DNA of 64,000 bases from Nitrospiria bacterium (GTDB taxonomy: Bacteria; Nitrospirota; Nitrospiria; JACQBZ01): the NCBI GenBank assembly GCA_035498035.1, contig DATKAN010000025.1:145190-209189 (forward strand). Direction: 5' to 3'. The notes beneath the pieces were generated by a model. That model was not told the origin of the DNA. It searched no databases and saw only the letters and a program-made list of their open reading frames with translations. Of the stretch, positions 26,839 through 45,336 are shown one piece after another; position 1 is the first letter of the stretch; every line of letters starts with the position of its first letter. The position numbers and the translations under genes were made by a program.

Positions 26839-26981
26839 ACAAAGCCGTTATCTAATCAGAATTGTCGAATCTTGTCAAGGCGGAAGTTTTGCAACTCTTA
26901 CATCGAGAGCGAAGCGGCGGGGCCGCCTGCGATTTAGCCTCTTCTTTACTTTATCCCCGGGTCCGTGCGATAATCCGGGCC

Positions 26982-28415
26982 ATGACAACCTCCGCCAACG
27001 AAAAAGTCAGGGTCCGGTTTGCGCCAAGCCCGACCGGGTATCTCCATATCGGCGGCGTCCGAACGGCGCTCTTCAACTGGCTCTTCGCGCGGCACAACAA
27101 GGGGACCTTTATCCTTCGGATCGAGGACACCGACCGCTCGCGATCCACCGAAGAATCGATCCACACGATTCTCGACAGCATGCGCTGGCTCGGGCTGGAC
27201 TGGGACGAAGGGCCGGTACGGCAGATGGACCGTCTCCCCGTTTATAAGGAGCACGCCGACCGCCTCCTCAAAGAGGGCAAGGCCTACCTATGCTATTGCA
27301 CGCCGGAAGAACTGGAGCGGCGGCGAAAAGAAGCCCAGGCCAGGAAGCTCATTCCCCGTTATGACGGACGGTGTCGGGATCGGAAGGGCCCGGCTCCGGA
27401 CCTCCCGGCCGCGATTCGGTTCAAGGCCCCGCAAACCGGACAGACCCTCGTGAACGATCTGGTCAAGGGCCTCGTCCGGTTCGACAACGCGCAGTTAGAC
27501 GATCTGATCATGCTCCGCTCCGACGGCGTCCCGACCTACAACTTCGGCGTCGTGGTGGACGATTCCTTGATGGGAATCACCCACGTGATCCGCGGGGACG
27601 ATCATTTGAATAACACCCCGCGTCAAATCCAGATCTACCACGCCTTGGGCTATGCCCTTCCGAAATTCGCGCATCTGTCGATGATCCTCGGTCCGGACAA
27701 AAGCCGCCTTTCCAAGCGTCACGGCGCGACCTCGGTGGGGGAGTACCATGAGCAGGGCTATCTCCCGGAAGCCCTCATCAACTATCTGGCCCGCTTGGGC
27801 TGGTCGCACGGCGACCAGGAAGTCTTCAGCCGGGAGGAACTGGTCGAAAAATTTTCCCTCGACAGCATCACCTCTTCGCCTGCCGTTTTCAACCCGGAAA
27901 AGCTGCTCTGGTTGAACGGTCATTATATCCATGAGGCGGACAGCCGGCGGCTGGCCGAATTGCTCAAACCTATTCTGGCCGGGCAGGGACATACCGGCGA
28001 AGCGATGGATGACCTCGTTAGGGACAAGGTTATCACGGCGGTCAAGTCGCGTTCTCGCACGCTGATCGAGCTGGCGCAGGGGACCACCTTTTTCTTCAAA
28101 GAAGACCTGTCCTATGACGAATCCGCCCGGACCAAATTCCTGACGCCGGAAATCCGGCCGGTGCTGATCGAGCTCGTGAGCCGACTGGAGGCCGCGGCGG
28201 CCTTCTCTGCACCGGAGCTGGAAAAAACCTTTAAAGGGCTTCTTGACCAGAACGGGTTGAAGCTGGCCCAATTGGCCCAACCCGTCCGCGTGGCCCTCAC
28301 CGGCCGCACGGTGAGTCCCGGAATCTACGAGGTGATGGAGATCCTCGGGAAGGAGCGCAGCCTCGCCCGTCTAAAACAAGCGACCGACTGGATCACGACC
28401 CGTAACCCGAAGTAG
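26982..28415 (+). CDS. gltX: Glutamate--tRNA ligase
   Basis: RFAPSPTGYLHIGGVRTALFNW (HIGH region) and a KLSKRH-like KMSKS motif (RLSKRHG). Start moved to the Met (MTTSANEK...) 120 nt downstream of the ORF-track start. Confidence 0.9.
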   Translation: MTTSANEKVRVRFAPSPTGYLHIGGVRTALFNWLFARHNKGTFILRIEDTDRSRSTEESIHTILDSMRWLGLDWDEGPVRQMDRLPVYKEHADRLLKEGKAYLCYCTPEELERRRKEAQARKLIPRYDGRCRDRKGPAPDLPAAIRFKAPQTGQTLVNDLVKGLVRFDNAQLDDLIMLRSDGVPTYNFGVVVDDSLMGITHVIRGDDHLNNTPRQIQIYHALGYALPKFAHLSMILGPDKSRLSKRHGATSVGEYHEQGYLPEALINYLARLGWSHGDQEVFSREELVEKFSLDSITSSPAVFNPEKLLWLNGHYIHEADSRRLAELLKPILAGQGHTGEAMDDLVRDKVITAVKSRSRTLIELAQGTTFFFKEDLSYDESARTKFLTPEIRPVLIELVSRLEAAAAFSAPELEKTFKGLLDQNGLKLAQLAQPVRVALTGRTVSPGIYEVMEILGKERSLARLKQATDWITTRNPK

Positions 28416-28461: not shown

Positions 28462-29028
28462 TTGATGGAGGTGTTCATGATAAACGCGAAGGGTGTAATC
28501 AAGGGATTGCGATTGTTTGTTTTGCTTGGATCGATGATCGGAACCGCCGCCTGTTCCACGGTCACGGTGAAATCAAGCGCCAAATATGACCCAAACTTCG
28601 ACTACGCCCGTTTCAAGACCTTCAACTGGATGCCGAAGTCCGCATCGAGCGAAAACCTTCAACAGACCGCGGCCGCCGCGGAGGTGGGCCAGATGATCGA
28701 GTCCGAGGTGGAGAAGGGGCTGGAGGCACGAGGATTCAATAAATCTACCGCCGGGAAACCCGACTTTTACCTGAATTATCACGCCCGCGTCCAGACCAGA
28801 GTTGAACCCCAAGTCGTGACCTACAACTGCGGGCGGGGAATTTGCGGCCAGGGAATGGATATGAATCAGGTCAGGGAAGGAACGCTGATCCTGGACATCA
28901 TCCAGGCCGACAGCAACGATGTGGTCTGGCAGGGAACGGCAGTCGCCGAGGTCGGGGATCCGTCCAGACGAAAGGAAATTATTGAAACGGCGGTCCGTCA
29001 GTTGCTCAGCGTGTTTCCTCCCAAATAA
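28462..29028 (+). CDS. Lipoprotein, DUF4136-like family, paralog 1 of a tandem array
   Basis: Signal peptide plus lipobox (GTAACS). Conserved blocks shared with the two downstream paralogs: NF.R.KT..W, Y.CG..IC.QG, REG.L.LDII.ADS..VVW.GTAV and GDP..R. A later Met (28477) is also a possible start. Confidence 0.6.
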   Translation: MMEVFMINAKGVIKGLRLFVLLGSMIGTAACSTVTVKSSAKYDPNFDYARFKTFNWMPKSASSENLQQTAAAAEVGQMIESEVEKGLEARGFNKSTAGKPDFYLNYHARVQTRVEPQVVTYNCGRGICGQGMDMNQVREGTLILDIIQADSNDVVWQGTAVAEVGDPSRRKEIIETAVRQLLSVFPPK

Positions 29029-29082
29029 AAAAGGATCCCGCGGGGCCCGGGAAAAAAAAAGAACCGGCGCCACTTCACAGAC

Positions 29083-29643
29083 TTGTCAACGAAAAATACG
29101 AACAGGGCGATGAAAGGGCTCCACCTTCTTTTACTGTTCTATATTACAACCTGGGCCGCCGCCTGCTCCACAATTACGGTGAACACGGTCTACGAGCCGG
29201 GCATCAATTTTGCCCGATTGAAGACCTACGCCTGGGTGCAACGACCGAAGGACAGTGATAACCTTCAGGAGGTGATCACGGCCGGGCGGGTGGGCTATAT
29301 CATCGAGGGGGCGGTGGAAAAAGAGTTGGCCGCCCGCGGCTATGAGAAAGAAAACAGAGCGGGTGTAAAACCGGGCTTTTTTGTGGCCTACCGCGCACAA
29401 GTTAAGGAAAAGATGGAGCCGAGGGCGATCACCTACTCGTGTGGAGAAAGTATTTGTCCGCAGGGGATCGATTTGGTAAAAATCAGGGAGGGGATGCTGG
29501 TGCTGGACATCATCGAGGCCGATTCAAACCGGGTGGTCTGGCGGGGTACGGCGGTCGGGTTGATCGGGGATCCGTCCAAAAGACAGGAGGCGATTGAAGG
29601 AGCTGTCGGCCGCCTGCTTCAAAACTTTCCCCCGAAACAATGA
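29083..29643 (+). CDS. Lipoprotein, DUF4136-like family, paralog 2
   Basis: Lipobox WAAACS and the same conserved blocks. The Met at 29110 (MKGLHLLLLF...) is an alternative start. Confidence 0.6.
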   Translation: MSTKNTNRAMKGLHLLLLFYITTWAAACSTITVNTVYEPGINFARLKTYAWVQRPKDSDNLQEVITAGRVGYIIEGAVEKELAARGYEKENRAGVKPGFFVAYRAQVKEKMEPRAITYSCGESICPQGIDLVKIREGMLVLDIIEADSNRVVWRGTAVGLIGDPSKRQEAIEGAVGRLLQNFPPKQ

Positions 29644-29866
29644 AGGCGACCTCACGGAATTTGATGCCGCATCATCATCGCACAGATGACGTCCAGGATT
29701 TTTGAATTCGTCCGCACGTTGCCAAACCGTTTCCGCATCCGTGCCCGAAGCTATCCCGCAAGAAAGCGATTGACTTGATCTGCCCGGGTATTTCAAAATA
29801 GAGCCCCTTGCTTTTAAATTCGTTGGCAACCCGAATCTCGAACGGGACGAAAAAAAGAATAAATTC

Positions 29867-30394
29867 ATGAACAGAGTCCGCACATTTTTCTTTTTAAGCA
29901 TGATGACCTGGGCGACGGCCTGTAGTTCCTTCACGGTCACTTCGGCCTATGAGCCAACCGTAAATTTTTCCCAGATGAGGACTTATGACTGGATGCCCCG
30001 GAACGAAATAACCGACAAACCTCCGGAGACGGCCATTGCCGCACAAGTGGGCCAACTGATCAAAGAGGCGGTGGAAAATGGAATGACGAAGCGCGGATAC
30101 GTAAAACGAAGCGGGGAGAACCCGGATTTTTTTCTGGCCTACCACGCGTCGGTCGAGGACAAGGTGGAGCCGCGGGTGGCAGACTACTATTGCGGAACTC
30201 GGATTTGCAATCAGGGAATAACGATCGACCGGTACAGGGAAGGGACGCTGGTGCTGGACATCATCAAGGCCGACTCAAAGGAAGTGGTCTGGCGCGGAAC
30301 GGCGGTCGGCATCGTAGGGGATCCGACGAAACGTAAGGCCCTCATCGATGAAGCGGTGAACGAAATCCTGAACCAATTCCCGCCGAAAAAATAG
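29867..30394 (+). CDS. Lipoprotein, DUF4136-like family, paralog 3
   Basis: Lipobox WATACS and the same conserved blocks. Confidence 0.6.
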   Translation: MNRVRTFFFLSMMTWATACSSFTVTSAYEPTVNFSQMRTYDWMPRNEITDKPPETAIAAQVGQLIKEAVENGMTKRGYVKRSGENPDFFLAYHASVEDKVEPRVADYYCGTRICNQGITIDRYREGTLVLDIIKADSKEVVWRGTAVGIVGDPTKRKALIDEAVNEILNQFPPKK

Positions 30395-30467
30395 GAAATC
30401 CTCACGGGCTCGCCCTCGGGGAGTCCTCCGGCGAGCCCGCGGCTTATATGATTCCAGGTGGCATTCG

Positions 30468-31631
30468 ATGATCGGGTTTGTCGCTCTTGGATTCCTACAG
30501 GTCATCTTAATTTTTGCGGTATTATATTACCGCGCAAGGCTCCGGCGTTCCATCCTCAAGACCGGCGCCATGCAGGAGAGGTTCGGGACTCTTGCCAATG
30601 GCGCACCCGTGCTTATCTGGATGGCGGGGCCTGATAAGCTCTGCACGTATTTCAACAAGCGCTGGCTTGATTTCACCGGACGAACAATGGAACAGGAGCT
30701 TGGAAACGGGTGGGCGGATGGGGTTCACCCTGACGATTTTCACCGGTGTCTCGATACCTATATCACTGCATTCGACCGGAGAGAACTCTTTGAGATGGAA
30801 TACCGGCTCCGCCGCGCGGACGGCCATTATCGCTGGATCTTTGATACGGGCAGCCCGTTGTTTTCCGAAGGCACTTTCCTTGGTTACATCGGGTCCTGTA
30901 TCGACATTACCGATCGCAAGGAGATGGAAGAAACCCTGCGAAAGAACGAGGCGGCTCTTCGGTGGAGCCAGAGCGACCTCCAGAAACTGGCCTCCAGGTT
31001 GTTGACGTCGCAGGAAGAAGATATGCGACAGCTGGCCCGGGATCTCCATGATGACTTGACGCAAAGACTGGCCGTCCTGGCCATCGACGCCGGATTGCTT
31101 GAGCAAAAGTGCGCGGCCAGCCCTCCGGAGGTTCATCAGAAGCTTGCGGATATCAAAAAGAAATTGATCAAGATATCCGAAGACGTCCATAACCTCTCTC
31201 GCCAGATCCATCCTTCCATTATCGACGATCTTGGATTGATCCACGCCATTGAGGCGGAATGCTACGCCTTTGCCAAGAGCACCGGCATCGTCGTATCGTT
31301 CTCCCCCGAGTCAATTCCGGGACCGATTCCGCAGGATATTTCACTTTGCATATACCGGGTGATTCAGGAAGGCCTCCGGAATGTCGCCAAACATTCCAAA
31401 GCCGAGGAGGCCCATATTTCCCTTGCCGGCGAACCGGCAGGCCTGCGTCTCACCGTTCGGGACGCCGGGACAGGCTTCGACATGAACGAAGTAAGACATA
31501 AGGCCGGCCTCGGCTTCACCGGTATGAGAGAGCGGGTTCGTTTAATTCATGGCTCAATGTCCATAAACTCGGAGCCGGGGAAAGGCACGGTGGTGGAAGT
31601 CTTTGTTCCGTTCCCGGAGAAAAACCCATGA
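30468..31631 (+). CDS. Sensor histidine kinase (TM, PAS, HisKA_3, HATPase_c; NarL-partner type)
   Basis: N-terminal TM segment, a PAS fold (WMAGPDKLCTYFNKRWLDFTG...YRWIFDTGSPLF), an H-box in LARDLHDDLTQRLAVL, and the G1/G2 boxes RDAGTGF and GLGFTGMRERV. Confidence 0.8.
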   Translation: MIGFVALGFLQVILIFAVLYYRARLRRSILKTGAMQERFGTLANGAPVLIWMAGPDKLCTYFNKRWLDFTGRTMEQELGNGWADGVHPDDFHRCLDTYITAFDRRELFEMEYRLRRADGHYRWIFDTGSPLFSEGTFLGYIGSCIDITDRKEMEETLRKNEAALRWSQSDLQKLASRLLTSQEEDMRQLARDLHDDLTQRLAVLAIDAGLLEQKCAASPPEVHQKLADIKKKLIKISEDVHNLSRQIHPSIIDDLGLIHAIEAECYAFAKSTGIVVSFSPESIPGPIPQDISLCIYRVIQEGLRNVAKHSKAEEAHISLAGEPAGLRLTVRDAGTGFDMNEVRHKAGLGFTGMRERVRLIHGSMSINSEPGKGTVVEVFVPFPEKNP

Positions 31632-32269
31632 CGAAGGCGCGTGTGATTCTTGCCGATGATCATAAAATTGTGATCGAGGGACTGAAAAGTCTTCTGGAGC
31701 CCGAATTTGATATTGTTGGGACGGTTCAAGATGGGCGCGAGCTCATCAACTCCGCCCAGAAACTTAGCCCTGATGTCATCGTGGTCGACATCAGCATGCC
31801 CGGGTTAAACGGGATTGAAGCGGTTCAATTTCTCAAACACACTCAAGAAAATGTCAAAGTTGTCTTTCTCACCATGCACCCCGATGTGGCCTACGCGGTG
31901 AAGGCCTTCGAATCGGGCGCCTCGGGTTATGTCCTGAAACATTCGGCCCCCGAGGAACTTATTACGGCCATCCGGGAATCGCTGAAAGGCCGGACCTACG
32001 TGACGCCGCTGATCGCCGGAGAGCTGATGCAGTCCTATAAGGCAGGGTCCCACCGGGATAGGGATACCCTCAACCAGCTCACATCGAGACAGCGTCAGGT
32101 CCTTCAGCTTTTGGCCGAGGGGCATTCCGCCAAGGAAATTGCCACGATTCTGGATATTTCGGTGAGGACGGTGGAATTCCACAAATATCGAATGATGGAA
32201 GACCTCGGAATTAATAACGGGGCCGATTTGATCCGTTATGCGATCAAGCACCGGGTTGTCTCTATTTGA
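31628..32269 (+). CDS. Response regulator, NarL/LuxR family (REC plus HTH_LuxR)
   Basis: ILADDH...VVDISMPGLNG receiver domain and a C-terminal LTSRQRQVLQLLAEGHSAKEIATILDISVRTVEFHKYR. Overlaps the HK stop (ATGA). Confidence 0.85.
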   Translation: MTKARVILADDHKIVIEGLKSLLEPEFDIVGTVQDGRELINSAQKLSPDVIVVDISMPGLNGIEAVQFLKHTQENVKVVFLTMHPDVAYAVKAFESGASGYVLKHSAPEELITAIRESLKGRTYVTPLIAGELMQSYKAGSHRDRDTLNQLTSRQRQVLQLLAEGHSAKEIATILDISVRTVEFHKYRMMEDLGINNGADLIRYAIKHRVVSI

Positions 32270-32428
32270 AGTGATCCTTGAGGACATTATTTTCGAAAAA
32301 CCCGTATTTTCCCTAGTTGTGTTCCCTGCCAATCTCTAGTACATCTTCGCATACAACATAAAATCACTCACGATTGATGGCGACGTTTCAGGCGGACTGT
32401 CGGAGCCCGTTTGAAAGGACGGAGGAGA

Positions 32429-32833
32429 ATGCAAAGGCCCCGAATACTTTTGGCCGATTCACATCTTGGTATGCTGGAGGGCCTCCGGGACCTCCTGGAA
32501 GCCTCGGTGGATGTGATTTATATGGTTGTGAATGAAAAATCCCTGGTGGACGCCGTGGCCAGGGCCGCGCCCGACCTCATCATCGTGGACCTCTCCATGC
32601 CCGTAGCGTCGGAGGCCAATGTGGTCCGCCTCCTTCGAAGATTACGCCCTGAAATTCCTGTCATCGTTTTAAGCGTCCATGACGATCAAGCGGTCCTTCA
32701 TGAGTGCCTTGCCGCCGGGGCCAAAGGGGTTGTGCTTAAACGGACAGCCGTCATCGATCTCGTTCCGGCCGTGGAAACCGTGATGAAAGGGGGAAACTAT
32801 GTGTCCCCATCCATACGTTCAGCCCCCAATTAA
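32429..32833 (+). CDS. Stand-alone receiver (REC) domain protein
   Basis: RILLADSHLG...DLIIVDLSMP...IPVIVLSVHDD receiver pattern with no output domain. Start set at the Met after GGAGGAG; the ORF-track start at 32411 is also possible. Confidence 0.6.
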   Translation: MQRPRILLADSHLGMLEGLRDLLEASVDVIYMVVNEKSLVDAVARAAPDLIIVDLSMPVASEANVVRLLRRLRPEIPVIVLSVHDDQAVLHECLAAGAKGVVLKRTAVIDLVPAVETVMKGGNYVSPSIRSAPN

Positions 32834-32882
32834 CCGCGTGAGGCGATTCTTCACGCTCGAATTTTCCTTGAAGGAGATAATC

Positions 32883-33515
32883 ATGATGAAAACTATATAT
32901 TTATCGGCCGCCATGACCCTATTCGGGGCGATCCTCCTTTCCTCTTGCGCCTCCACGCAAGTGACGGCCGCCTGGAGGGACGACGCCTATACCCAAACCC
33001 CCCAAAAAGCCCTGGTGTTACTCGTCACCGGGAAACCCACCCTCCTGCGGGTATTCGAGGACGAGTTCTCTCGGCAACTGAAAACCCGGGGCATCGAGGC
33101 GGTTCCCGGGTACAGCCTGCTCCCGCTGGACCGGAAGCTTGATAAAGAGGAAATCGCGGCCGCGGCGGAAAAAATCCATGCGGATACGGTTTTAATCACC
33201 CGTCTCGTGGACAAGAAATCCTACGAAACCTACTATCCGGGCAGCGTGTACGCCACACATCCCGGAGCGTACAATCCCGGCTGGAATGACTATTACTCAA
33301 GAGGCTTTGACTATTACCAGGCCACCCCCGGATACACCGTCCAGCGGGACATCCTGTATGTCGAAACCCAACTCTACGACGTCAGCAATCAACACCTGAT
33401 CTGGTCGGTCATGACCGAAACGCTCGTTGGCGATCCCATGGAAACGGAGGTGCGATCGTTTGTAAAAATCATAATGAAAAACCTGTCGCAGAATCGCCTC
33501 GTGGAAAAGCAGTGA
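32883..33515 (+). CDS. Lipoprotein, distant member of the same DUF4136-like family
   Basis: Signal peptide plus lipobox (LLSSCAS). C-terminal DILYVETQLYDVSNQHLIWSVMTE parallels the LVLDII.ADS..VVWRGTAV block. AAGGAG RBS before the ATG at 32883. Confidence 0.55.
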   Translation: MMKTIYLSAAMTLFGAILLSSCASTQVTAAWRDDAYTQTPQKALVLLVTGKPTLLRVFEDEFSRQLKTRGIEAVPGYSLLPLDRKLDKEEIAAAAEKIHADTVLITRLVDKKSYETYYPGSVYATHPGAYNPGWNDYYSRGFDYYQATPGYTVQRDILYVETQLYDVSNQHLIWSVMTETLVGDPMETEVRSFVKIIMKNLSQNRLVEKQ

Positions 33516-33680: not shown

Positions 33681-33754
33681 TGGGGGATCGTCTAATGGCA
33701 GGACGACAGACTCTGACTCTGTCTATCGAGGTTCGAATCCTCGTCCCCCAGCCA
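33681..33754 (+). tRNA. tRNA-Gln (anticodon CUG)
   Basis: Cloverleaf: acceptor UGGGGGA/UCCCCCA with U1-A72, G73 and an encoded CCA; anticodon stem GACAGA/UCUGUC with loop CUCUGAC; T-arm GAGGUUCGAAUCCUCG, identical to E. coli tRNA-Gln. Confidence 0.8.
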
Positions 33755-33943
33755 ATAGTTCACCCGGCCGATTTCAAGCCCCGTAATTTCAAATTCAAGG
33801 CCCCGGAAGCGAGCCGGCGACTGCCCGGCGTCTCCGACCTGGTAAATTTACTAAGCGGTGCTTCCCCGAGTTGAAACGGAAGGCCGGTCGTTTAAGATGC
33901 GGACAAGGCTCCCAGCGCCGGAAAAGGATAGGGTCGTCGTCCA

Positions 33944-34561
33944 TTGCCGAAGTTATTACTCTTCACCATAATTATAATCCTTGTCGGGTCGCTCCCCGGA
34001 GCGGCCGCCGCGGCCTCGGGAATCGAAATCACCCCCTTCGCAGGGTTTCGATTCGGCGGTGTGTTTGAGGACGCCAACACCGGCGAGAGAATCGGGATCG
34101 ATGAATCCGGGAGCTTCGGTCTGATGCTCGATTTCGACCTTGAGCCCGCCAAACAGATCGAGGTTTACCTGAGTCGCCAGAAAACCAAGCTTTCGGAAGG
34201 GGGGACGGTCACCGGCGATCCGAATTTCGACCTCACCGTCGACTATTACCACATCGGCGGCCTCTATGAGCTCGAAGGGGATCGCGTCCGACCGTTTGTT
34301 GCGGGGACATTCGGTCTCACCCGTATGGACCCGGAGGGGGCGGATCGGTCCACGGAATATCATTTTTCGCTGGCCCTCGGCGGAGGGGCCAAGATCCCCC
34401 TGACGGAACGTCTCGGTCTTCGGTTTGATGCACGCGGCATCTTCACCGCGGTAAACTCCAACACCACGATCTTTTGCTCCGGCGGCGGCTGCACCATTCG
34501 GGTGCAAGGCGGCGGGGTCCTTCAGGGGGAACTGACCGTGGGATTGACGTTTAAGTTGTGA
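33944..34561 (+). CDS. Outer-membrane beta-barrel protein (OmpW/OmpA-beta-barrel-like, about 8 strands)
   Basis: Signal peptide MPKLLLFTIIIILVGSLPGAAAAAS, alternating hydrophobic beta-strand pattern, and a C-terminal aromatic/Leu residue (TFKL). Confidence 0.55.
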   Translation: MPKLLLFTIIIILVGSLPGAAAAASGIEITPFAGFRFGGVFEDANTGERIGIDESGSFGLMLDFDLEPAKQIEVYLSRQKTKLSEGGTVTGDPNFDLTVDYYHIGGLYELEGDRVRPFVAGTFGLTRMDPEGADRSTEYHFSLALGGGAKIPLTERLGLRFDARGIFTAVNSNTTIFCSGGGCTIRVQGGGVLQGELTVGLTFKL

Positions 34562-34747
34562 CTTTATGGAATCCGTGAGGCCTATTCAGGCGAAGGGTGT
34601 ATTTTAAATTTCTCGATCGATCCCGAAGTGCATCCTAATCATTCTCGGAACCACGTTTCCTGAAGCCCCGTATTTTTGCGAGTTGAAACTGGGACCCCTC
34701 CCTTCCTATAATCTTTGTTGGATGGTCGGATACGGGAGGAAGAAAAA

Positions 34748-36424
34748 ATGACGGCGCTTTCCCCCCTGGCAGGCAAGCCCGCCACAAAAGAGATGTTGGT
34801 GGACGTAGCCCGGCTGGAACGCGATTATTACGAGAAGCGGACCGATGTCGCGGATCCCAACCAGCGGGTGAGTTTCGGCACCAGCGGGCACCGGGGCTCG
34901 CCCTTGCGCGGCTCATTTACCGAAGCCCACATCCTGGCCATCACCCAGGCGATCTGCGACTACCGTCACAGCCGGGGCACGGACGGCCCGCTCTACATGG
35001 GCAAGGACACGCACGCGGTGTCCGGTCCGGCCCAGCGGACCGCGCTCGAGGTCCTGGCGGCCAACCGCGTCGAGACCGTCATTCAAAAGGAGGACGGGGT
35101 GACGCCGACGCCGTCGGTCTCCCGGGCCATCCTCGCCTACAACCGCGGCCGCAAGACTCACCTGGCCGACGGCATCGTCGTTACGCCGTCGCACAATCCG
35201 CCGGAGGACGGCGGATTCAAGTACAACCCGACCCACGGCGGACCGGCCGAAACCGAGGTCACGCACTGGATCCAGGACCGGGCCAACGAGCTTTTACAAA
35301 AGGGCAACGCCGGGGTCAAGCGCGTGCCGTTTTCCACGGCGATCAAAGCGGAGACCCTCCGACAGGAAGACTTCCTCCTGCCCTACGTCAACGACCTGCG
35401 AAACGTCATCGATTTGGACGCCATCCGCGCGGCGGGGCTCAAGTTGGCCGTGGACCCGCTCGGAGGCGCCGCCCAACCCTATTGGGAACCGATCAACGCC
35501 ATTTACGGGATCGACATCGCCGTCGTCAATCCCGCGATCGACCCGACCTTTTCTTTCATGACGGTCGATTACGACGGGCGGATCCGAATGGACTGTTCCA
35601 GCCCGTACGCCATGGCCCGGCTCGTCGGGCTGAAGGACAAGTACCGCTTGGCATTCGCCAACGACGCCGACGCGGACCGCCACGGGATCGTCACCCCCTC
35701 TTCCGGCTTGATGAACCCCAACCACTATCTGGCGGTCGCCATCCGCTATCTCCTCACGCACCGTCCCCTCTGGTCGGTCCAGTCCGCCGTCGGCAAGACG
35801 CTGGTCAGCAGCAGCATGATCGACCGCGTTGTGCAGAAGCTCGGCCGCCGTCTATCCGAGGTTCCGGTGGGCTTCAAATGGTTTGCCCCCGGACTGTTCG
35901 ACGGCTCGTATTGCTTCGGAGGCGAGGAGAGCGCCGGGGCGAGCTTTTTACGACGCGACGGCCGGGTCTGGACGACCGACAAGGACGGCCTGGTCATGAA
36001 CCTGCTTGCGGCCGAGATCACCGCCTGCACCGGCCGGGATCCCGGCGAGCATTATCGGGAATTGACCGATGATTTCGGGGCGCCCCACTACACGCGCGTG
36101 GACACGCCCGCGACGCCCGAGCAGAAGGCGAAATTGGAAAAACTGTCACCCGAGGCGGTCACGGCGGCGACACTGGCGGGCGAACCGATCACGGCCAAGC
36201 TGACACGCGCCCCGGGCAACGGTGCTCCGATCGGCGGGCTCAAGGTCGTGACAGCCAGCGGGTGGTTTGCGGCCCGGCCTTCCGGCACGGAGAACCTCTA
36301 CAAGATTTACGCGGAGAGCTTCAAGGATCCGGCTCATCTGGACGCGATTGTGAGCGAGGCCCAAAAGATCGTCAACAATGCGTTGGAATCATCCAAGCCC
36401 GGACGCGACCGGCAAAGGGATTGA
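34748..36424 (+). CDS. pgm: Phosphoglucomutase (alpha-D-glucose phosphate-specific)
   Basis: Active-site FGTSGHRGS, a GGPAETEV-type metal loop and a C-terminal sugar-binding region. Start at the Met after the GGAGG RBS ([10 protein letters not shown]...). Confidence 0.85.
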
Positions 36425-36426
36425 CC

Positions 36427-38013
36427 ATGATCGACAAAACCCGGCCGACAAGTATTCCACCGTTTCCCCCTGGATACCGTGCTTCGGGCATCCTCCTTCA
36501 CGTCACCTCGCTCCCCTCGTCTTACGGCATTGGCGACTTGGGGCCGTCCGCGATGGCGTGGGTCGACCAACTCAACGAGGCGGGTCAAACCTGGTGGCAG
36601 GCCCTGCCGTTGGGACCCACCGGATACGGTGACTCGCCGTACCAATCCCTTTCGTCCTTTGCCGGTAACGGGCTACTGATCAGCCCGGACTGGATCATCG
36701 AGGACGGACTGTTGAATGCGAACGATTGCCAAGGCCCATCCTTCTCCGAAACCGCCGTCGATTACCAGGCCGTCGCCTCATTCAAACACCGGTTGCTCGA
36801 GAAGGCCTGGAATAACTTCCAATCGCAGGCGCACGCCGACTTGCAGAACGCCTGTCAGAATTTCCGCACCGATCAGGCCCATTGGCTGGAGGACTATGCC
36901 CTCTTCCAAGCGCTCAAAGCCCGGTACAACGGCGCCTATTACCTCCAATGGCCGGCCGAGCTGGTGCGCCGGGACCCGGCTGCCCTCGAACGGGCACGTC
37001 AGGAACTGGCCGGCCAGGTCGATCGGGTATGCTTTGTACAATTTCTGTTGTTCCGTCAGGGGGCGCGCCTCAGGGAATACGCACGGGGCAAGGGTGTCCG
37101 ATTGATCGGCGATCTGCCTTTTTTCGTTTCCCCCGATTCGAGCGACGTGTGGGCCAACCCGGAACTTTTTTTGTTGGACGAAGATCGCCGTCCGCGCGTC
37201 GTCGCCGGGGTACCGCCCGACTATTTCAGCGCCGATGGACAACTTTGGGGCAACCCTCTCTACGACTGGGCGGCGCTTCGTCGCACCGGCTATCGCTGGT
37301 GTATGGACCGCATTCGGGCGCTGCTGGCTCACGTCGACGTGGTCCGCCTGGATCATTTCCGGGCCTTCGTGGCGGCCTGGCAGATCCCGGCGGGGGCGCC
37401 GACGGCCCGATCGGGCCGCTGGAGGCGCGGTCCGGGTTTAAAATTTTTCAATGCGCTGGAGATGGAGATAGGAACGCTGCCTTTCATCGCCGAGGATTTG
37501 GGGGTGATTACTTCCGCGGTGAATGGGCTACGGGACAAGATGCATTTACCCGGAACGCGGGTCCTTCAGTTCGCCTTCGACGGCCAGTCGGACAACCCCT
37601 ACCTCCCCGAAAACTACGTCCCCAACACGGTGGTGTACACCGGCACCCACGACAACCCCACAACGCGCGGCTGGTATGCTGAATTGCCCGAGAACCAACG
37701 CAAAAATTTATGGGATTATCTAAAGCGCCCCCCTGGGAGAAGCGAGGAGGTCGCGCGCGAACTGATCGGCCTGGCGTGGTCCTCACCGGCGGCGTTGGCC
37801 ATGACTCCTTTACAGGATCTCCTCAGCCTTGGAGACGAGGCTCGAATGAACATCCCCGGTCGTGCGGAGGGTAACTGGCGCTGGCGCTGCACTCAGAAGA
37901 TGCTGTCGGATCCGGCCTTCCCATGGATCCGCGATTTGACACACTCCGCAAAGCGCTCGGGGGTTCTTGAAAGACCGACGACGGATCGCGTGATGGAGGC
38001 CGCGTCATCATGA
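36427..38013 (+). CDS. malQ: 4-alpha-glucanotransferase (amylomaltase, GH77)
   Basis: YGIGDLGP and [17 protein letters not shown] motifs, and the catalytic region [10 protein letters not shown]. Start is 3 nt after the pgm stop. Confidence 0.85.
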
Positions 38014-39677
38014 AAATTAAAAATCCCCGGGCAAAACGGCATGGCACCGCACCCCTGACCCGACGAAAGGCATGGAAGGCTCTCCAGGCCCATTATAAGA
38101 AGGTCCGGGGGTTGCATCTCCGGAAGCTTTTCGCGGACGATCCCAAACGCGGCGAGCGGATGACGGCCGAGGGGGCGGGTCTCTTCCTGGATTACTCCAA
38201 AAACCGGATCACGGATGAAACCATCGCGCTCCTCCTGAAGCTGGCGGAAGAATCCCGTCTGCGGGAGCGGATCGAGGCCATGTTCCGGGGGGAGAAGATC
38301 AACGTCACCGAAAACCGGGCCGTGCTGCATGTGGCCTTGCGGGCGCCGAGGGGGGCCTCGATCGTCGTGGACGGCGGGAACGTGGTTCCAGAAGTTCACG
38401 CCGTGCTGGATAAAATGGCCGAGTTCGCCAATCGGATCCGCAGCGGGGCCTGGAAGGGCCACACCGGCAAGCGCATTCGCAACGTCGTCAACATCGGGAT
38501 CGGGGGCTCCGACCTCGGGCCGGTGATGGCCTATGAGGCCCTCAGGCATTTCAGCGATCGGGCCCTGACCTTCCGCTTCGTATCCAACATCGACGGGACG
38601 GACTTCGCGGAGGCGATTCGGGACCTGGACCCCGCGGAGACCCTGCTCATCGTCTCCTCGAAAACCTTCACGACCCTGGAGACGATGACCAACGCCCGCA
38701 CCGCCCGGGACTGGGCGTTGAAGGGTCTCGGGGGAGATGAAAAGGCGGTGGCCCGGCATTTTGTCGCCGTATCGACGAACACGGCGGAGGTGTCGAAGTT
38801 CGGCATCGATCCCGCCAGCATGTTCGGGTTCTGGGACTGGGTCGGCGGCCGCTACTCCATGGACTCGGCCATCGGCCTCTCGACGATGCTGGCGGTCGGC
38901 CCGGAGCCATTCCGCGCCATGCTGGAGGGCTTCCACCGAATGGACAACCACTTCCGCGAAGCCCCTTTCGAGCGCAACCTGCCGGTTCTCATGGGCCTAC
39001 TGTCCCTCTGGTATAATAACTTCTTCGGCGCTCAAACCGTCGCGGTCCTGCCCTACGATCAATACCTGAAACGGTTCCCGGCCTATCTCCAACAGCTGAT
39101 CATGGAGAGCAACGGAAAACACGTGACGCTGGAGGGAACCGAGGTGGATTACCCGACCGGCGCAATCTACTGGGGCGAGCCCGGAACCAACGGCCAGCAT
39201 TCGTTCTATCAGCTGATTCATCAGGGGACTCGGCTGATCCCCTGCGACTTCATCGCATTCAACCGTTCGCTCAACCCGCTCGGCCGCCATCACGACATGC
39301 TGCTGGCGAATGTCTTCGCCCAGGCCGAAGCGCTGGCCTTCGGCAAGACGGACAAGGAGGTCAAAGCCGAGGGCACCCCCCCGGCCCTGGCGCCGCACCG
39401 GGTCTTCGAGGGAAACCGACCGTCGAACATGATCCTCGCCGAACGCCTGTCGCCGGAAATCCTGGGATCCTTGGTCGCCCTGTACGAGCACCTGACTTTC
39501 ACCCAGGGCGTCGTCTGGAATTTGAATTCGTTCGATCAATGGGGCGTGGAGCTCGGCAAGGCGCTGGCCCAGCGGATTCTTCCGGAACTTGAGAGCAAGA
39601 CGGCGCCCAAGCTCGGCCATGACAGTTCGACGAACCATCTGATCCGTCGGTATCGGAATTCGAAGGGGGCGGGATGA
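38010..39677 (+). CDS. pgi: Glucose-6-phosphate isomerase
   Basis: 555 aa with the PGI signature regions (GIGGSDLGP; ...ESNGKHVT...). Overlaps the malQ stop (ATGA). Confidence 0.9.
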
Positions 39678-39720
39678 AGGCCTTCACAACGAGCCATGGC
39701 TATGGTGAGAGGGATCTAAT

Positions 39721-40737
39721 ATGGAAATTGGGATGATCGGTTTGGGCAGAATGGGCGCGAACATGGTGCGGCGGCTTTTGAAAAACGGCCACCGCTGCGT
39801 CGTCTTCGACCAGTCGCCAAAAACGGTGAAGGCGTTGGCGCAGGAGAAAGCGGTCGGGGCCTCCTCGCTTGCGGATCTCGCCAAAAAACTGGAGAAACCG
39901 CGGGCGATCTGGATGATGGTTCCGGCGGCGGTCGTGGATAAAACCATCGCCGACCTCCGGCCCCATCTCGAGGCCGGGGACATTCTCATCGATGGCGGCA
40001 ATTCCTGTTATGTGGATGACATCCGGCGGGCCAAGGATCTTGCGGCCAAACGGATCCATTACGTGGATGTGGGAACCAGCGGAGGGGTCTGGGGTCTGGA
40101 GCGGGGCTACTGCTTGATGATCGGCGGCGAGGCCGCGCCGGTCAAGCGGCTCGATCCGATCTTCGCCGGCCTGTCTCCCGGCGCGGGCGACATCCCGCAC
40201 ACCGCGGGGCGCGAGAAGATTCCCGGCACCGCCGACCAGGGTTACCTGCACTGCGGGCCGAACGGCGCCGGCCACTTTGTCAAGATGGTGCACAACGGAA
40301 TCGAGTACGGTCTCATGGCCGCCTACGCCGAGGGGATGGGCATCCTGCGCGCCGCAAACGTCGGTAAGAGAAAACACGAGGCCGATGCGGAGACGACCCC
40401 CCTGCGCGAGCCCGAGCATTATTCCTACGATTTTAATCTGAGCGACATCGCGGAAGTCTGGCGACGCGGGAGCGTGGTCGCTTCGTGGCTGCTGGATTTG
40501 ACGGCCGCCGCACTGGCCAAAGATCCCGAACTCTCGCGCTTCACCGGGCGGGTGTCGGATTCGGGCGAAGGACGGTGGACGATCAAGGCCGCCGTGGATG
40601 AAGCGGTGCCGGCCCACGTCCTGACCGCGGCGCTCTTTGAACGGTTCAGCTCACGAGGCGAGGCCGGGTTCGCGGACAAGTTGCTCTCGGCCATGCGCTT
40701 CGAGTTCGGCGGACACGTGGAAAAACAGGAGAAATGA
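39721..40737 (+). CDS. gnd: 6-phosphogluconate dehydrogenase (decarboxylating), short ~300-aa NAD-type form
   Basis: [13 protein letters not shown] Rossmann motif, then [19 protein letters not shown] and [21 protein letters not shown], the 6PGDH catalytic-domain signatures. Confidence 0.8.
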
Positions 40738-40756
40738 GGGGAAAAACAGAGGTCTC

Positions 40757-41455
40757 ATGCAAATCAAAATTCTTCCCGATGCCGATGCGGTGGCAAAAGA
40801 GGCGGCCAAAATCATCGCCGCGGAGGCTCGGGCGGCCGCGGCCGCGCGCGGCCGGTTCATCGTGGCCATGAGCGGTGGCCGTACACCGTGGGCGATGCTT
40901 CGTGCGCTGGCCTCGGAAGACCTCCCCTGGGATGAAATTCATGTCGTGCAGGTGGACGAACGGGTGGTCCCGGAGGGTCACCCGGACCGGAACCTCACCC
41001 GGTTGCGCGAAAGCCTGCTTGACCATTCCCCGCTGCCTCCGGAGCAAATCCATCCCATGCCGGTGGAGTCGTCGGATCTGGAAGTTGCCGCCATGGGCTA
41101 TGCCCTGACCCTCAAAGAGATCGCCGGCTCGCCGCCGGTGCTCGACCTGGTCCATCTGGGACTTGGACCGGACGGTCACACCGCTTCACTCGTGCCGGGT
41201 GATCCGGTCCTCCACATCACCGACCGGGATGTCGCCCTGACGGGGATATATCACCAGCGACGTCGGATGACCCTGACCTATCCCATTTTGAACCGTTCAC
41301 GGAACATCCTCTGGCTTGTGACCGGGAGCGAAAAGGTCGGGATGCTTTCGCGCTTGCGCGACGGCGATCCATCCATTCCGGCCGGGCGTGTTCGCCGGGA
41401 CCATGCCCGGGTACTCGCCGACCGCGCGGCCGCCGGGGGGCCGGGGTCGATATAA
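40757..41455 (+). CDS. pgl: 6-phosphogluconolactonase
   Basis: RFIVAMSGGRTP motif of the Pgl/NagB fold. Position is directly after gnd. Start at the Met (MQIKILPD...) 120 nt downstream of the ORF-track start. Confidence 0.75.
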   Translation: MQIKILPDADAVAKEAAKIIAAEARAAAAARGRFIVAMSGGRTPWAMLRALASEDLPWDEIHVVQVDERVVPEGHPDRNLTRLRESLLDHSPLPPEQIHPMPVESSDLEVAAMGYALTLKEIAGSPPVLDLVHLGLGPDGHTASLVPGDPVLHITDRDVALTGIYHQRRRMTLTYPILNRSRNILWLVTGSEKVGMLSRLRDGDPSIPAGRVRRDHARVLADRAAAGGPGSI

Positions 41456-44196: not shown

Positions 44197-44818
44197 ACCC
44201 GCCACGGTGTTTCTAATCGATGACGACGCCTCCGTGCGGCGGGCGTTGACGCGACTCATCACGTCCGCCGGCCATCAGGTGCGGCCCTTTGCCTCGGCGC
44301 GCGAATATCTGGACAGCGGTCCTCATGGCGGCGGTCCGGCCTGCCTGGTGCTCGACGTTCGTCTGCCCGGCCTCAGCGGGCTGGACCTCCAACGCGAACT
44401 TCGGACGGCCAAGACCCCCCACCCTGTTATTTTTATCACCGGCCACGCGGATGTTCCGATGAGCGTGAAGGCGATGAAGGAGGGGGCGGTCGATTTTATT
44501 CCCAAGCCGGTTCGGGATGAGGACCTTCTGCGCTCCATCGAACAGGCGATGACCCGGGCCGAACGGGAAAGCGCGGAACGGGCCGAGATCGAGGCCCTTC
44601 AAGATCGCGCCCACCGCTTGACCCCGCGCGAGCGCGAGGTGATGGCCCTGGTCGTGAGAGGCCTGCTCAATAAACAAATCGCCTTCGAACTCGGCACCGC
44701 CGAAAAAACCGTCAAAGTCCACCGGGCGCGCGTGATGCAGAAAATGCAGGTCCAATCGCTGGCCGAACTCGTGCGCGTCACGGAGAAGATCGGCCTTCCG
44801 CCAAGACCCGCTTCGTAA
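44183..44818 (+). CDS. Response regulator, FixJ/LuxR family (REC plus HTH_LuxR)
   Basis: MDNPKPATVFLIDDD...VLDVRLPGLSG...TGHAD receiver domain and a C-terminal LTPREREVMALVVRGLLNKQIAFELGTAEKTVKVHRAR. Start taken as the TTG at 44183, overlapping the kinase stop by 14 nt. An in-frame ATG at 44084 would overlap by 113 nt. Confidence 0.7.
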   Translation: MDNPKPATVFLIDDDASVRRALTRLITSAGHQVRPFASAREYLDSGPHGGGPACLVLDVRLPGLSGLDLQRELRTAKTPHPVIFITGHADVPMSVKAMKEGAVDFIPKPVRDEDLLRSIEQAMTRAERESAERAEIEALQDRAHRLTPREREVMALVVRGLLNKQIAFELGTAEKTVKVHRARVMQKMQVQSLAELVRVTEKIGLPPRPAS

Positions 44819-44922
44819 TCCTCCCCCTTTCGATCCATTGGACCAAGGTCCCATATCCACCCATCCCGTTTTTCATTAGAATAAGCCCCCTGTAATCCAT
44901 GGAGTGAACGAACCTGTTTCGG

Positions 44923-45336
44923 GTGGACTGCGCGGGGTTCCTCTTGAGCCAAACCAAGCCTCTGATCGCCGTTGTGGATGACGATGTATCCGTCTGTCGC
45001 GCGCTGGAGCGGCTGCTGCACTCGCTGGGGATGAACACACATACCTTCGCCTCCGGCGGCGAGTTCCTCGATTTCATTCATGCCATGCCGTCGTTTCATC
45101 CGGACTGCGTCCTCCTCGACCTGCATATGCCCGGGTTGAACGGCCTGGATGTGCAGGAACAACTGACCCGGGACCACAGTCCGCTTTCCGTCATTTTCAT
45201 CACCGCCTATGACGAGGCCGTCACCCGGGATCGGGCGCTGGAGGGAGGCGCGGTCGCCTTTTTGCGCAAACCGTTCAGCGATGAGACCTTGATTAAGGCA
45301 TTGAACGAAGCGATTCAGAGGAGATCGGGACAATGA
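44923..45336 (+). CDS. Stand-alone receiver (REC) domain protein, translationally coupled to the decarboxylase gene
   Basis: IAVVDDDVSVCRAL...CVLLDLHMPGLNG...FITAYDE...FLRKPF receiver pattern with no output domain. Stop overlaps the next start (ATGA). TTG at 44944 (MSQTKPLIAVVDDD) is an alternative start. Confidence 0.6.
   Translation: MDCAGFLLSQTKPLIAVVDDDVSVCRALERLLHSLGMNTHTFASGGEFLDFIHAMPSFHPDCVLLDLHMPGLNGLDVQEQLTRDHSPLSVIFITAYDEAVTRDRALEGGAVAFLRKPFSDETLIKALNEAIQRRSGQ

Follow-up and report, generated by a model that had tools for sequence, protein, structure and literature searches.

A DUF4136 lipoprotein array adjoining a NarL-type two-component system in a Nitrospiria genome

Organisation of the locus

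The window, a stretch of 64,000 nucleotides from a Nitrospiria (Nitrospirota) metagenome-assembled genome, has the seven open reading frames of the locus at the coordinates given by the first-pass annotation, all on the forward strand (28462-29028, 29083-29643, 29867-30394, 30468-31631, 31628-32269, 32411-32833 and 32799-33515). Inspection of the reading frames and Pfam searches confirmed the tandem array of lipoprotein genes together with a kinase, a NarL regulator and a receiver-only protein. The constant left neighbour of the DUF4136 gene is gltX, encoding glutamyl-tRNA synthetase (26862..28415, forward strand). Since relatives call a protein of 477 aa, gltX probably starts near 26982. Orthologues of gltX (tRNA-synt_1c) lie directly 5' of a DUF4136 gene in the related genomes L001, L027, L029, L042, L044, L047, L049, L050 and L080. 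On the right, a tRNA-Gln (CTG) gene (33681..33754, forward strand; Rfam 60.5 bits, also called by ARAGORN), which is kept in L001, is situated between the fourth lipoprotein gene and a gene for a small outer-membrane beta-barrel protein (OMP_b-brl; 33944..34561, forward strand; Pfam E 6.6e-8). The latter is carried on a segment of ~800 bp (33886-34681) that is missing from L001, as seen from a gap in the BLAST alignment.

The histidine kinase (30468..31631, forward strand) showed PAS_3, HisKA_3 and HATPase_c domains in Pfam. Its ATG is preceded by AGGTGG and its start does not overlap any gene. Hydropathy and the conserved N-termini indicated a single N-terminal hydrophobic anchor (residues 1-23), with RARLRR directly after it and the PAS domain on the cytoplasmic side; neither hydropathy nor Pfam revealed a periplasmic domain. 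The start of the response regulator (31628..32269, forward strand) overlaps the kinase stop by 4 bp. Its REC and GerE domains (Pfam, NCBIfam) are those of a NarL/FixJ-type protein, as proposed. The receiver-only protein (32411..32833, forward strand; Pfam REC, BLASTP) is a paralog of the receiver domain of the regulator (35% identity) and retains the phospho-acceptor Asp60. Its orthologues come after the regulator in L001, L047 and L080. It had been described as an orphan, a label that does not fit, since a second triad of histidine kinase, NarL regulator and receiver-only protein is present at 41878-45336, there without lipoproteins. Such a protein would be the standard third member of these triads and probably serves as a phosphate sink or branch point.

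The lipoproteins

Three of the lipoproteins belong to the family PF13590 (DUF4136), as the first-pass annotation had suspected: an HMM search gave 92-115 bits at a cut-off of 32.8 bits. lipoA (28477..29028, forward strand; Pfam E 1.4e-29) opens as a reading frame at 28462 but probably starts at 28477, with GGAGG 5 nt upstream of the ATG. For lipoB (29110..29643, forward strand; frame open from 29083; E 8.9e-26) the probable start is 29110, as nucleotide homology to the B-type genes of L039 and L037 begins at 29109. lipoC (29867..30394, forward strand; E 5.7e-33) occupies the slot directly 5' of the kinase. With pairwise identities of 45-49% and phmmer E values of about 1e-55, far beyond chance, the three are true paralogs. 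Three of the four sequence blocks said to be shared are exact in all copies, namely Y-x-C-G-x-x-I-C-x-Q-G, R-E-G-x-L-x-L-D-I-I-x-A-D-S-x-x-V-V-W-x-G-T-A-V and G-D-P-x-x-R, whereas the first is only approximate (DYARFKTFNW in copy A, NFSQMRTYDW in copy C).

Lipoprotein signal peptides are present in all four proteins, and residue +2 after the lipobox Cys is Ser or Ala throughout. With Ser at this position, lipoA, lipoB and lipoC would be exported and lipidated and would end up on the periplasmic face of the outer membrane; this sorting follows the +2 rule, which may not be that of Nitrospirota. The predicted fold of the three is a two-layer alpha/beta structure (beta-beta-alpha-beta-beta-beta-alpha) of the LptE / PelC / HpaA type. 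The AlphaFold model of lipoC (pLDDT 83.8) matched 4l8n (E 1.6e-8), PelC (4e-6) and LptE (3e-4) in Foldseek, and a profile search of the PDB matched 4f54. Both 4f54 and the DUF4136 domain of 4l8n are solved examples of the family, determined by JCSG from Bacteroidales proteins.

The fourth lipoprotein, lipoD (32883..33515, forward strand; frame open from 32799, probable start at 32883 or 32886), has a lipobox and is 100% identical in sequence to the NCBI protein VMN77_05255 (Nitrospiria bacterium). It had been assigned to the same family. This holds for the predicted fold, which is PelC/LptE-like (AlphaFold pLDDT 83.7; Foldseek matches to PelC and 4l8n), but not for the sequence, which stays below the Pfam threshold for DUF4136 (15.6 bits, E 0.022; by hhalign E 1.4e-3 and 18% probability). 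lipoD has no Cys pair, is missing from the conserved block in L080, and its homologues elsewhere have no two-component system in their contexts. Its kinship with DUF4136 is distant and below threshold, and it stands outside the conserved block.

History of the array

The array had been viewed as a lineage-specific expansion of paralogs. Types A, B and C are instead old orthogroups, of which other genomes have single members; relatives have either one DUF4136 copy or three, and their lipoB orthologues lie at unrelated loci. lipoA, lipoB and lipoC, one from each orthogroup, are three anciently diverged members of the family. The way in which they came together is recorded 5' of lipoC, where the insertion left behind some 50 bp of the displaced gltX 3' end as a relic (29753..29801, forward strand). 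It was recognised by alignment, by BLAST breakpoints at 28392/29759 and by its translation, ..LSRKKAIDLICPGISK*; the real gltX of L001 has ..LSRLKKAIDLSQPGGSK* at its C-terminus. The segment that brought in lipoA and lipoB has its right junction at this relic. Between lipoC and its L001 copy dS is 1.42, compared with 0.34-0.61 for neighbouring genes. The array arose by insertion of a segment (gltX 3' end, lipoA and lipoB) before an older gltX-lipoC-HK-RR-REC arrangement, and not by recent local duplication. It is real, yet it sits in a rearrangement-prone spot.

Promoter candidate and transcription

The AT-rich spacer at 29644-29866 had been put forward as a place for a promoter, and a sigma-70-like candidate was indeed found there (29770..29799, forward strand; TTGACT-18-CAAAAT, 9/12 matches in a consensus scan), about 60 nt 5' of lipoC and inside the gltX relic. 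Both hexamers are kept in L001 and L029, the second reading CAGAAT in L029. The region holds nine promoter-like matches, compared with 3.4 +/- 2.2 in shuffled sequences, and the candidate is weak evidence. Between lipoC and the kinase there is a GC-rich hairpin, GGGCTCGCC...GGCGAGCCC (30406..30438, forward strand). It has no U-tract, its fold energy of -31 kcal/mol corresponds to a z of only -1.6, and L001, L027 and L047 do not share it; a role as terminator is improbable. No motif for regulator binding turned up.

Most likely a DUF4136-HK-RR transcription unit begins with the DUF4136 gene that adjoins the kinase, because the genes share a strand and a conserved gap of 70-73 bp, no convincing terminator intervenes and a conserved promoter-like site lies upstream. 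A shared unit would tie expression of the DUF4136 gene to the two-component system and possibly place it under its control; co-transcription and regulation are both read from the gene layout.

Linkage to the two-component system in relatives

Synteny of lipoproteins and kinase holds wherever a relative has a kinase of 70% identity or more: a DUF4136 gene then lies 70-73 bp 5' of HK-RR-REC on the same strand. The order gltX-DUF4136-HK-RR(-REC) was seen in L001, L027, L047, L049 and L080, with different genes further downstream. In the slot before the kinase one finds either an A-type or a C-type gene, whose products are only 45% identical to each other. Kinase homologues at 53-56% identity have no DUF4136 gene beside them. 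The linkage also fails elsewhere. In L029 and L030 a 2.1-kb microhomology deletion removed HK-RR-REC and the three lipoprotein genes are intact and under purifying selection (dN/dS 0.18-0.40); in L042, gltX-lipoA is followed by unrelated genes and there is no two-component system; and B-type orthologues at other loci never lie beside one.

The best explanation of the locus as a whole, which we regard with moderate confidence, is that the lipoproteins are co-transcribed or regulated envelope lipoproteins and not sensors. The kinase would sense through its cytoplasmic PAS domain, and therefore a lipoprotein would be an output or a passenger of the system and not its periplasmic sensor.

It is possible, if rather doubtful, that the genes are coincidental neighbours in a rearrangement-prone islet reaching from gltX to tRNA-Gln, their conservation reflecting vertical inheritance among close relatives. 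Genomes at about 85% nucleotide identity show four different layouts (A-B-C-TCS-D, A-B-C-deltaTCS-D, C-TCS-D and A-other). The neighbouring housekeeping genes (atp, gltX, PGM) show the same collinearity in relatives; since atp-gltX-DUF4136-HK is collinear throughout a clade of 70-87% nucleotide identity, the adjacency may be simple inheritance. The unlinked B-type copies and lipoD homologues, a GC content of 0.54 for the region as against 0.59 for the window, and the great abundance and many contexts of the PAS-HisKA_3 family to which the kinase belongs, point in the same direction. Against coincidence, the gap of 70-73 bp and the common strand persist in five lineages despite changing downstream genes. 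Moreover, about four unrelated lineages have DUF4136 genes beside a kinase, a NarL regulator or a REC-only gene (two-component parts adjoin them in Cystobacter, Rokubacteria and other soil lineages), as does Burkholderia. The Burkholderia 'BiofilmReg' operon consists of a response regulator, a LysM/FecR protein, a PAS kinase and a DUF4136 protein (PMC5192318). As at our locus, its DUF4136 gene is co-oriented with the PAS kinase and the response regulator, but it comes last instead of first, the regulator is OmpR/CreB-like, the kinase is described with a periplasmic sensor, and a LysM/FecR protein is present. Its DUF4136 protein is related to lipoA, lipoB and lipoC by family only, not by orthology.

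The fold class offers a comparison. Several PelC, LptE, HpaA, GNA1162 and CsgG-type proteins form rings or plugs for outer-membrane transport machines. These lipid-anchored proteins match our lipoproteins in predicted fold (Foldseek E 1e-7 to 3e-4, TM 0.4-0.65), with no sequence-family match, and no pel, lptD or csg genes occur in the locus. By analogy, the lipoproteins may build oligomeric scaffolds or associate with outer-membrane complexes. The nearby beta-barrel gene at 33944-34561 is missing from a close relative.

Lipoproteins as sensors and the cysteine pair

The first-pass annotation suggested an envelope-stress or signal-sensing module, and in a redox version of this idea a Cys pair would report the periplasmic state to the kinase. 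Lipoprotein partners of sensor kinases are known (NlpE-CpxA, RcsF-Rcs, LpqB-MtrB, KapB-KinB), and NlpE and RcsF carry functionally important disulfides. Those systems share with this locus a small lipoprotein that acts on a two-component system or is encoded next to one; here the lipoprotein gene is first in the putative kinase operon of all close relatives, and the invariant Cys pair lies on an exposed hairpin. Nevertheless, we regard a sensor function as very unlikely. Those kinases or relays have extracytoplasmic or multi-pass parts, whereas the kinase here has an N-terminal anchor and essentially no extracytoplasmic residues. The lipoproteins have no homology to NlpE, RcsF, LpqB or KapB, the array outlives deletion of the two-component system, the slot accepts proteins of two types, and in other branches this loop carries Cys pairs whose spacing varies.

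The mature proteins contain exactly two Cys besides that of the lipobox. They form a C-x4-C pair (residues 118 and 123 in lipoA, counted from 28477, where the lipobox Cys is residue 26; 109 and 114 in lipoC) that is invariant in 13/13 subfamily members, among which no His is conserved. In the lipoC model the first ends strand beta3 (residues 88-109) and the second stands at the beginning of beta4 (112-134); the register, with a two-residue turn at 110-111, places them diagonally and not directly opposite each other (local pLDDT 77-79). The pair would thus flank the tip of a long hairpin and most likely forms a loop-closing disulfide in the oxidising periplasm, stiffening a protruding, family-variable loop that is a likely surface for contact with a partner. 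Sequence comparison favours a structural disulfide over the metal or redox site that the first-pass annotation had also considered, because other DUF4136 branches have independent Cys pairs of other spacings (Cx10C, roughly Cx20C) bracketing the same loop. The least probable of the readings considered is a metal site or catalytic thiol (e.g. two-Cys Cu(I) or an inter-subunit cluster), for which two invariant Cys close in sequence with conserved Gly and Gln alongside could be cited, but which offers only two potential ligands with no His, Met or Asp in the invariant columns nearby, a spacing that is not CxxC, a predicted oxidising location and a loop that is hypervariable across the wider family.

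Like other PF13590 lipoproteins, those described here have a lipobox, about 150 mature residues, the same fold and an uncharacterised function. They differ from generic members, to which their identity is about 30%, in the C-x4-C at the beta3-beta4 hairpin tip, which generic DUF4136 lacks, and in the tandem occurrence of three orthogroups. The pair occurs solely in one very small clade of Nitrospiria; of 1.84 billion cluster representatives (50% identity), just three exceed 200 bits.

DUF4136 lipoproteins and their cysteine pair

The three consecutive genes lipoA (ORF 28462-29028), lipoB (ORF 29083-29643) and lipoC (ORF 29867-30394), all on the plus strand downstream of gltX (26862-28415, plus strand), encode lipoproteins of about 180 amino acids that belong to DUF4136, a known but uncharacterised family. 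The Pfam model PF13590 (profile length 152, gathering threshold 32.8 bits) matched them with 103.9, 91.6 and 114.9 bits, respectively, as a full-length domain covering profile positions 1-152 or 3-152, and pairwise identity among the three was 45-49%. Every defining feature examined, namely profile score, lipobox and fold, was present, in agreement with the first-pass annotation; the conserved blocks listed there were also found, although the first of them had been stated loosely. No Pfam or NCBIfam family other than DUF4136 was detected in the lipoproteins. A PROSITE-type lipobox (PS51257-like pattern, Ser or Ala at position +2) is present in all four lipoproteins of the locus; its Cys, residue 26 in lipoA and residue 19 in lipoB and lipoC, is invariant across the subfamily that carries the cysteine pair described below.

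The AlphaFold model of lipoC (pLDDT 83.8) has the topology beta-beta-alpha-beta-beta-beta-alpha. Its best Foldseek match was 4l8n, a DUF4136-containing protein (E 1.6e-8), and other matches were PelC, LptE, HpaA, DUF330, CsgG and TraT. A PDB search with lipoC as a single sequence gave no match; 4f54 (E 9.5e-4) and 4l8n (E 2.9e-3) were reached by sequence profile only. The likeness to PelC and LptE is one of predicted fold, without membership in their sequence families, and none of the pel or lpt genes that form their cognate operons (pelA-G, the lptD partner) occurs at this locus. DUF4136 is a very large family without known function, on which our literature search turned up only a paper on a Burkholderia operon and lists of vesicle proteomes; its PelC/LptE-like fold class suggests roles as outer-membrane scaffold or partner.

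Apart from the lipobox Cys, the only cysteines of the mature lipoproteins are a C-x4-C pair (Cys109 and Cys114 in lipoC). Both are invariant in an alignment of 13 sequences, composed of the three paralogs of the window and ten close homologues, which contains no conserved His. Both are missing in generic DUF4136 members, and the two are strictly paired, being either both there or both gone. In the lipoC model Cys109 ends strand beta3 (residues 88-109) and Cys114 occupies the third position of beta4 (residues 112-134). Together they bracket the tip of a long hairpin whose loop corresponds to the length-variable segment of the family alignment. Four of the best 150 family representatives checked carried a Cys motif of the same length, and four others had independent pairs (Cx4C, Cx10C and about Cx20C) that enclose this loop; the hairpin loop of this family repeatedly gains a closing Cys pair. 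A disulfide or a metal or redox site had been proposed for these residues. Cys pairs that recur on a loop in the periplasm with differing spacings argue for a structural staple and against a fixed motif of the metal or redox type, and the pair probably forms a disulfide that closes the hairpin. We infer this bond rather than observe it, because the two-residue turn of the lipoC model would set Cys109 and Cys114 diagonally.

Searched against 1.84 billion representatives at 50% identity, a profile of the Cys-pair subfamily matched 9,940 clusters with E-values of 0.001 or lower. Only three representatives scored above 200 bits, the next one reaching 149 bits, and a word-based search returned only about 11 proteins with at least 35% identity, followed by generic DUF4136 proteins at about 30%. 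The drop in profile score together with the small number of close proteins indicates that the Cys-pair branch is tiny. This small, putatively disulfide-stapled branch of DUF4136 is described here for the first time.

The divergent lipoprotein lipoD (ORF 32799-33515, plus strand, with the real start at 32883 or 32886) had been assigned to the same family. It appears to share the fold class but misses the Pfam threshold, its PF13590 score being 15.6 bits (E 0.022), and it lacks the Cys pair. Among its homologues 26 of 28 matched PF13590 at E <= 1 (best 7e-6), and four had precomputed matches. An hhalign comparison of lipoD with DUF4136 was collinear and full-length with an E-value of 1.4e-3 but a probability of 18%. 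The lipoD model (pLDDT 83.7) matched PelC best (1e-7), then FlgT, CsgG, 4l8n (7e-5), GNA1162 and HpaA. lipoD is thus probably a distant, sub-threshold relative of DUF4136 in the same fold class. A protein with 100% identity to lipoD is on record as a hypothetical protein from the MAG of a Nitrospiria bacterium, which places the window in Nitrospirota. Neither DUF4136 genes nor two-component genes were found beside its homologues (38-63% identity).

Assembly of the array

A scan of GTDB genomes gave no close relative (best match 32% identical), and synteny was therefore drawn from metagenome contigs of relatives, designated by L numbers. A neighbour-joining tree resolved three old orthogroups, A, B and C, to which lipoA, lipoB and lipoC belong, respectively. 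The relatives carry them in different combinations next to gltX, the histidine kinase (HK), the response regulator (RR) and the receiver-only gene (REC). The order gltX-A-HK-RR-REC was found in L027, L046/47 and L049 (about 72-76% nucleotide identity by BLAST) and in L080 (kinase 71% identical in amino acids), where the conserved block is without lipoD. In L001-4 and L036 (81-87% nucleotide identity) the order was gltX-C-HK-RR-REC-D-tRNA-PGM, and in L029, L030 and L035 (86%) gltX-A-B-C was followed by a kinase remnant and then D. In L042 (85-87%) gltX-A was followed by unrelated genes. B-type genes also occurred alone, flanked by aldehyde-dehydrogenase-like and DEAD-box helicase genes in L037-41 and L051 (69-73% nucleotide identity over the lipoB gene) and in another context in L028 (70% over the lipoB gene). 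In L028 (989-2653, minus strand) about 1.1 kb separates the solitary B-type Cys-pair gene from a gene for a 554-aa protein in which a receiver domain is fused to a pyridine-nucleotide disulfide oxidoreductase (Pyr_redox_2).

It might be thought that the tandem genes arose by lineage-specific expansion of paralogs, as the first-pass annotation supposed. The spacer of 223 bp in front of lipoC (GC 0.48) tells a different story. It contains a relic of about 50 bp of a gltX 3' end (29753-29801), whose translation ..LSRKKAIDLICPGISK* resembles ..LSRLKKAIDLSQPGGSK* at the genuine C-terminus of L001 gltX and not the window's own gltX. BLAST breakpoints between the window and L001 fall at 28392 and 29759. 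Relic and breakpoints together indicate that an insertion joined the old orthogroups: gltX-C was the older arrangement, in front of which a segment with a gltX 3' end, A and B was placed. This reconstruction is new, and the locus shows that a tandem "expansion" can be an assembly of old paralogs built by recombination at a housekeeping gene.

Comparison of lipoC with the corresponding L001 gene gave a dS of 1.42, while flanking genes gave 0.34-0.61. Given this dS, the L001 copy owes its low identity to being an older allele and not to fast protein evolution. We rejected positive or diversifying selection for the lipoproteins, since their dN/dS was 0.14-0.40 in all comparisons and every value obtained was below 0.6. 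The pattern indicates that old alleles have been exchanged at a slot prone to recombination.

The same region has also lost genes. In L029, L030 and L035, close relatives at 86% nucleotide identity, a clean deletion of 2.1 kb has removed the equivalent of window positions 30719-32831 and with it most of the kinase, the regulator and the receiver-only gene. The junction lies at about L029 4925-4940 and shows microhomology (AACGGGTGA / AACCGCGTGA). The kinase remnant of 81 codons evolves under relaxed constraint (dN/dS 0.56).

The two-component system

The genes following lipoC on the plus strand encode a histidine kinase of 387 aa (30468-31631; PAS_3, HisKA_3, HATPase_c), a response regulator of 213 aa (31628-32269; REC, GerE) whose gene overlaps that of the kinase by 4 bp, and a receiver-only protein of 140 aa (32411-32833). 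Pfam matches of kinase (HisKA_3 7.5e-10, HATPase_c 3e-13, with the H-box LHDDLTQ visible in the sequence) and regulator (REC 1.7e-28, GerE 1.3e-18) are those of the NarL/FixJ type, in which a HisKA_3-HATPase_c kinase is combined with a REC-GerE/LuxR regulator, and agree with the NarL-type system originally annotated. The NCBIfam equivalog cut-offs of the named systems NarX/NarL, MctSR, UhpBA and LiaSR were not reached, the best matches being MctS for the kinase (141 bits versus a cut-off of 700) and MctR for the regulator (181 versus 300). The system is a generic NarL/HisKA_3 one, to which only the generic family name applies. The only hydrophobic segment of the kinase spans residues 1-23; RARLRR and then the PAS domain come after it, an arrangement kept in L001 and L027.

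The receiver-only protein shares 35% identity with the receiver of the regulator and retains the acceptor Asp (Asp60, aligned with Asp54 of the regulator). It had been regarded as an orphan. A second triad at 41878-45336, consisting of a kinase (periplasmic ABC_sub_bind plus PAS_3-HisKA-HATPase), a NarL-type regulator and a receiver-only protein of 137 aa, indicates that such a protein is a normal third member of these modules in this genome. The second triad has no lipoproteins and is followed by a gene for a 938-aa protein with an Orn/Lys/Arg decarboxylase domain.

PAS-HisKA_3 kinases may often adjoin envelope or outer-membrane genes. Homologous PAS-HisKA_3 kinase/NarL pairs in two other Nitrospiria contigs, L080 (7892-11167) and L081 (7162-11197), are followed by genes for a Phenol_MetA_deg-type outer-membrane channel and a sulfatase, between which L081 carries a DUF3313 lipoprotein gene.

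Relationship between lipoproteins and two-component system

Wherever a relative has a kinase with 70% identity or more, a co-oriented DUF4136 gene precedes the kinase gene at a distance of 70-73 bp. To this extent the linkage proposed earlier holds. Inheritance alone could explain the adjacency, because atp and gltX are part of the collinear block as well. L029 retains its three lipoprotein genes intact after deletion of the system, the whole system is missing in L042, no B-type gene is linked to it, and no DUF4136 gene adjoins the kinase homologues of 53-56% identity. A functional link is also weakened by the great size of the kinase family (5,409 matches at E <= 1e-30). Against this stands the persistence of spacing and strand even though the downstream genes vary among relatives. 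That one Nitrospiria clade conserves a DUF4136-HK-RR-REC block which can nevertheless be dispensed with has not been described before.

The spacer at 29644-29866, which had been called AT-rich and suggested as a place to look for a promoter, contains the candidate site TTGACT-18-CAAAAT (29770-29799), conserved in L001 and L029. No convincing terminator was found between lipoC and the kinase gene; a hairpin at 30406-30438 was considered as terminator or attenuator and rejected (z -1.6, no U-tract, unconserved). No structure was found in the gltX-lipoA and lipoA-lipoB spacers. The better reading is that the lipoprotein is a co-transcribed or regulated output of the system. Sensing of envelope stress by the lipoproteins, as first suggested, is disfavoured: a lipoprotein sensor requires a kinase or relay with a periplasmic or multi-pass domain, and this kinase, with segment 1-23 alone, offers a lipoprotein nothing in the periplasm to contact. 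The logic of NlpE, RcsF and LpqB, in which a lipoprotein informs a kinase, therefore fails here on kinase topology. That Cys-stapled lipoproteins are interchangeable (A/C-type) redox-sensitive envelope modules, which act on the membrane-anchored kinase by way of its one transmembrane helix or of a third partner, seems very improbable. If true, it would make DUF4136 proteins widespread unrecognised co-sensors for cytoplasmic-type kinases and would explain why Nitrospiria, Rokubacteria, myxobacteria and Burkholderia repeatedly have their genes next to those for PAS/GAF kinases, NarL regulators and receiver-only proteins.

A link is also favoured by two-component genes that adjoin distant DUF4136 genes in several lineages unrelated to one another. 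Cystobacter has a gene for a hybrid PAS/GAF kinase as the neighbour; in Rokubacteria/Acidobacteria MAGs a NarL-type regulator is located directly upstream, together with a MASE1-GAF-PAS kinase; and in another soil lineage DUF4136 adjoins a GAF-PAS kinase and two receiver-only genes. An RR-LysM/FecR-HK-DUF4136 operon has been published for Burkholderia (PMC5192318). Adjacency occurred in about 4 of 22 independent distant lineages, a count too rough for significance, and enrichment is suggestive at best. The findings at this locus, in an uncultured organism, are modest and do not overturn current views. The occurrence of some DUF4136 branches beside two-component genes could guide a first genetic test.

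The downstream region

A tRNA-Gln (CTG) gene (33681-33754), the only structured RNA matched in an Rfam search, separates lipoD from a segment of about 800 bp (33886-34681) with a gene for a small outer-membrane beta-barrel (33944-34561, plus strand). This segment is missing in L001, which has about 47 bp instead. Imperfect direct repeats (AAGCCCCGTAATTT / AAGCCCCGTATTTT) at 33776 and 34663 do not match the ends of the indel.

The decamer CCCGTAWTTT occurs four times on the plus strand (32301, 33780, 34667 and 45797; 0.12 expected). Two copies extend to CCCGTATTTTnnnnAGTTG, one of them in the RR-REC spacer and the other just upstream of a site at 34683-34712 that strongly resembles a promoter and precedes the phosphoglucomutase gene. 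We considered the decamer as a site for the regulator and left it out of the argument, as the copy at 45797 is inside a coding region, only the RR-REC spacer copy is kept in L001 and the longer form occurs only twice.

Downstream of the beta-barrel gene, a conserved sugar-phosphate cluster (34715-41455, plus strand) comprises phosphoglucomutase, a GH77 4-alpha-glucanotransferase, glucose-6-phosphate isomerase, a 6-phosphogluconate dehydrogenase-like protein and a member of the 6-phosphogluconolactonase/glucosamine-6-P isomerase family. The cluster is collinear in L001 and partly collinear in L032.
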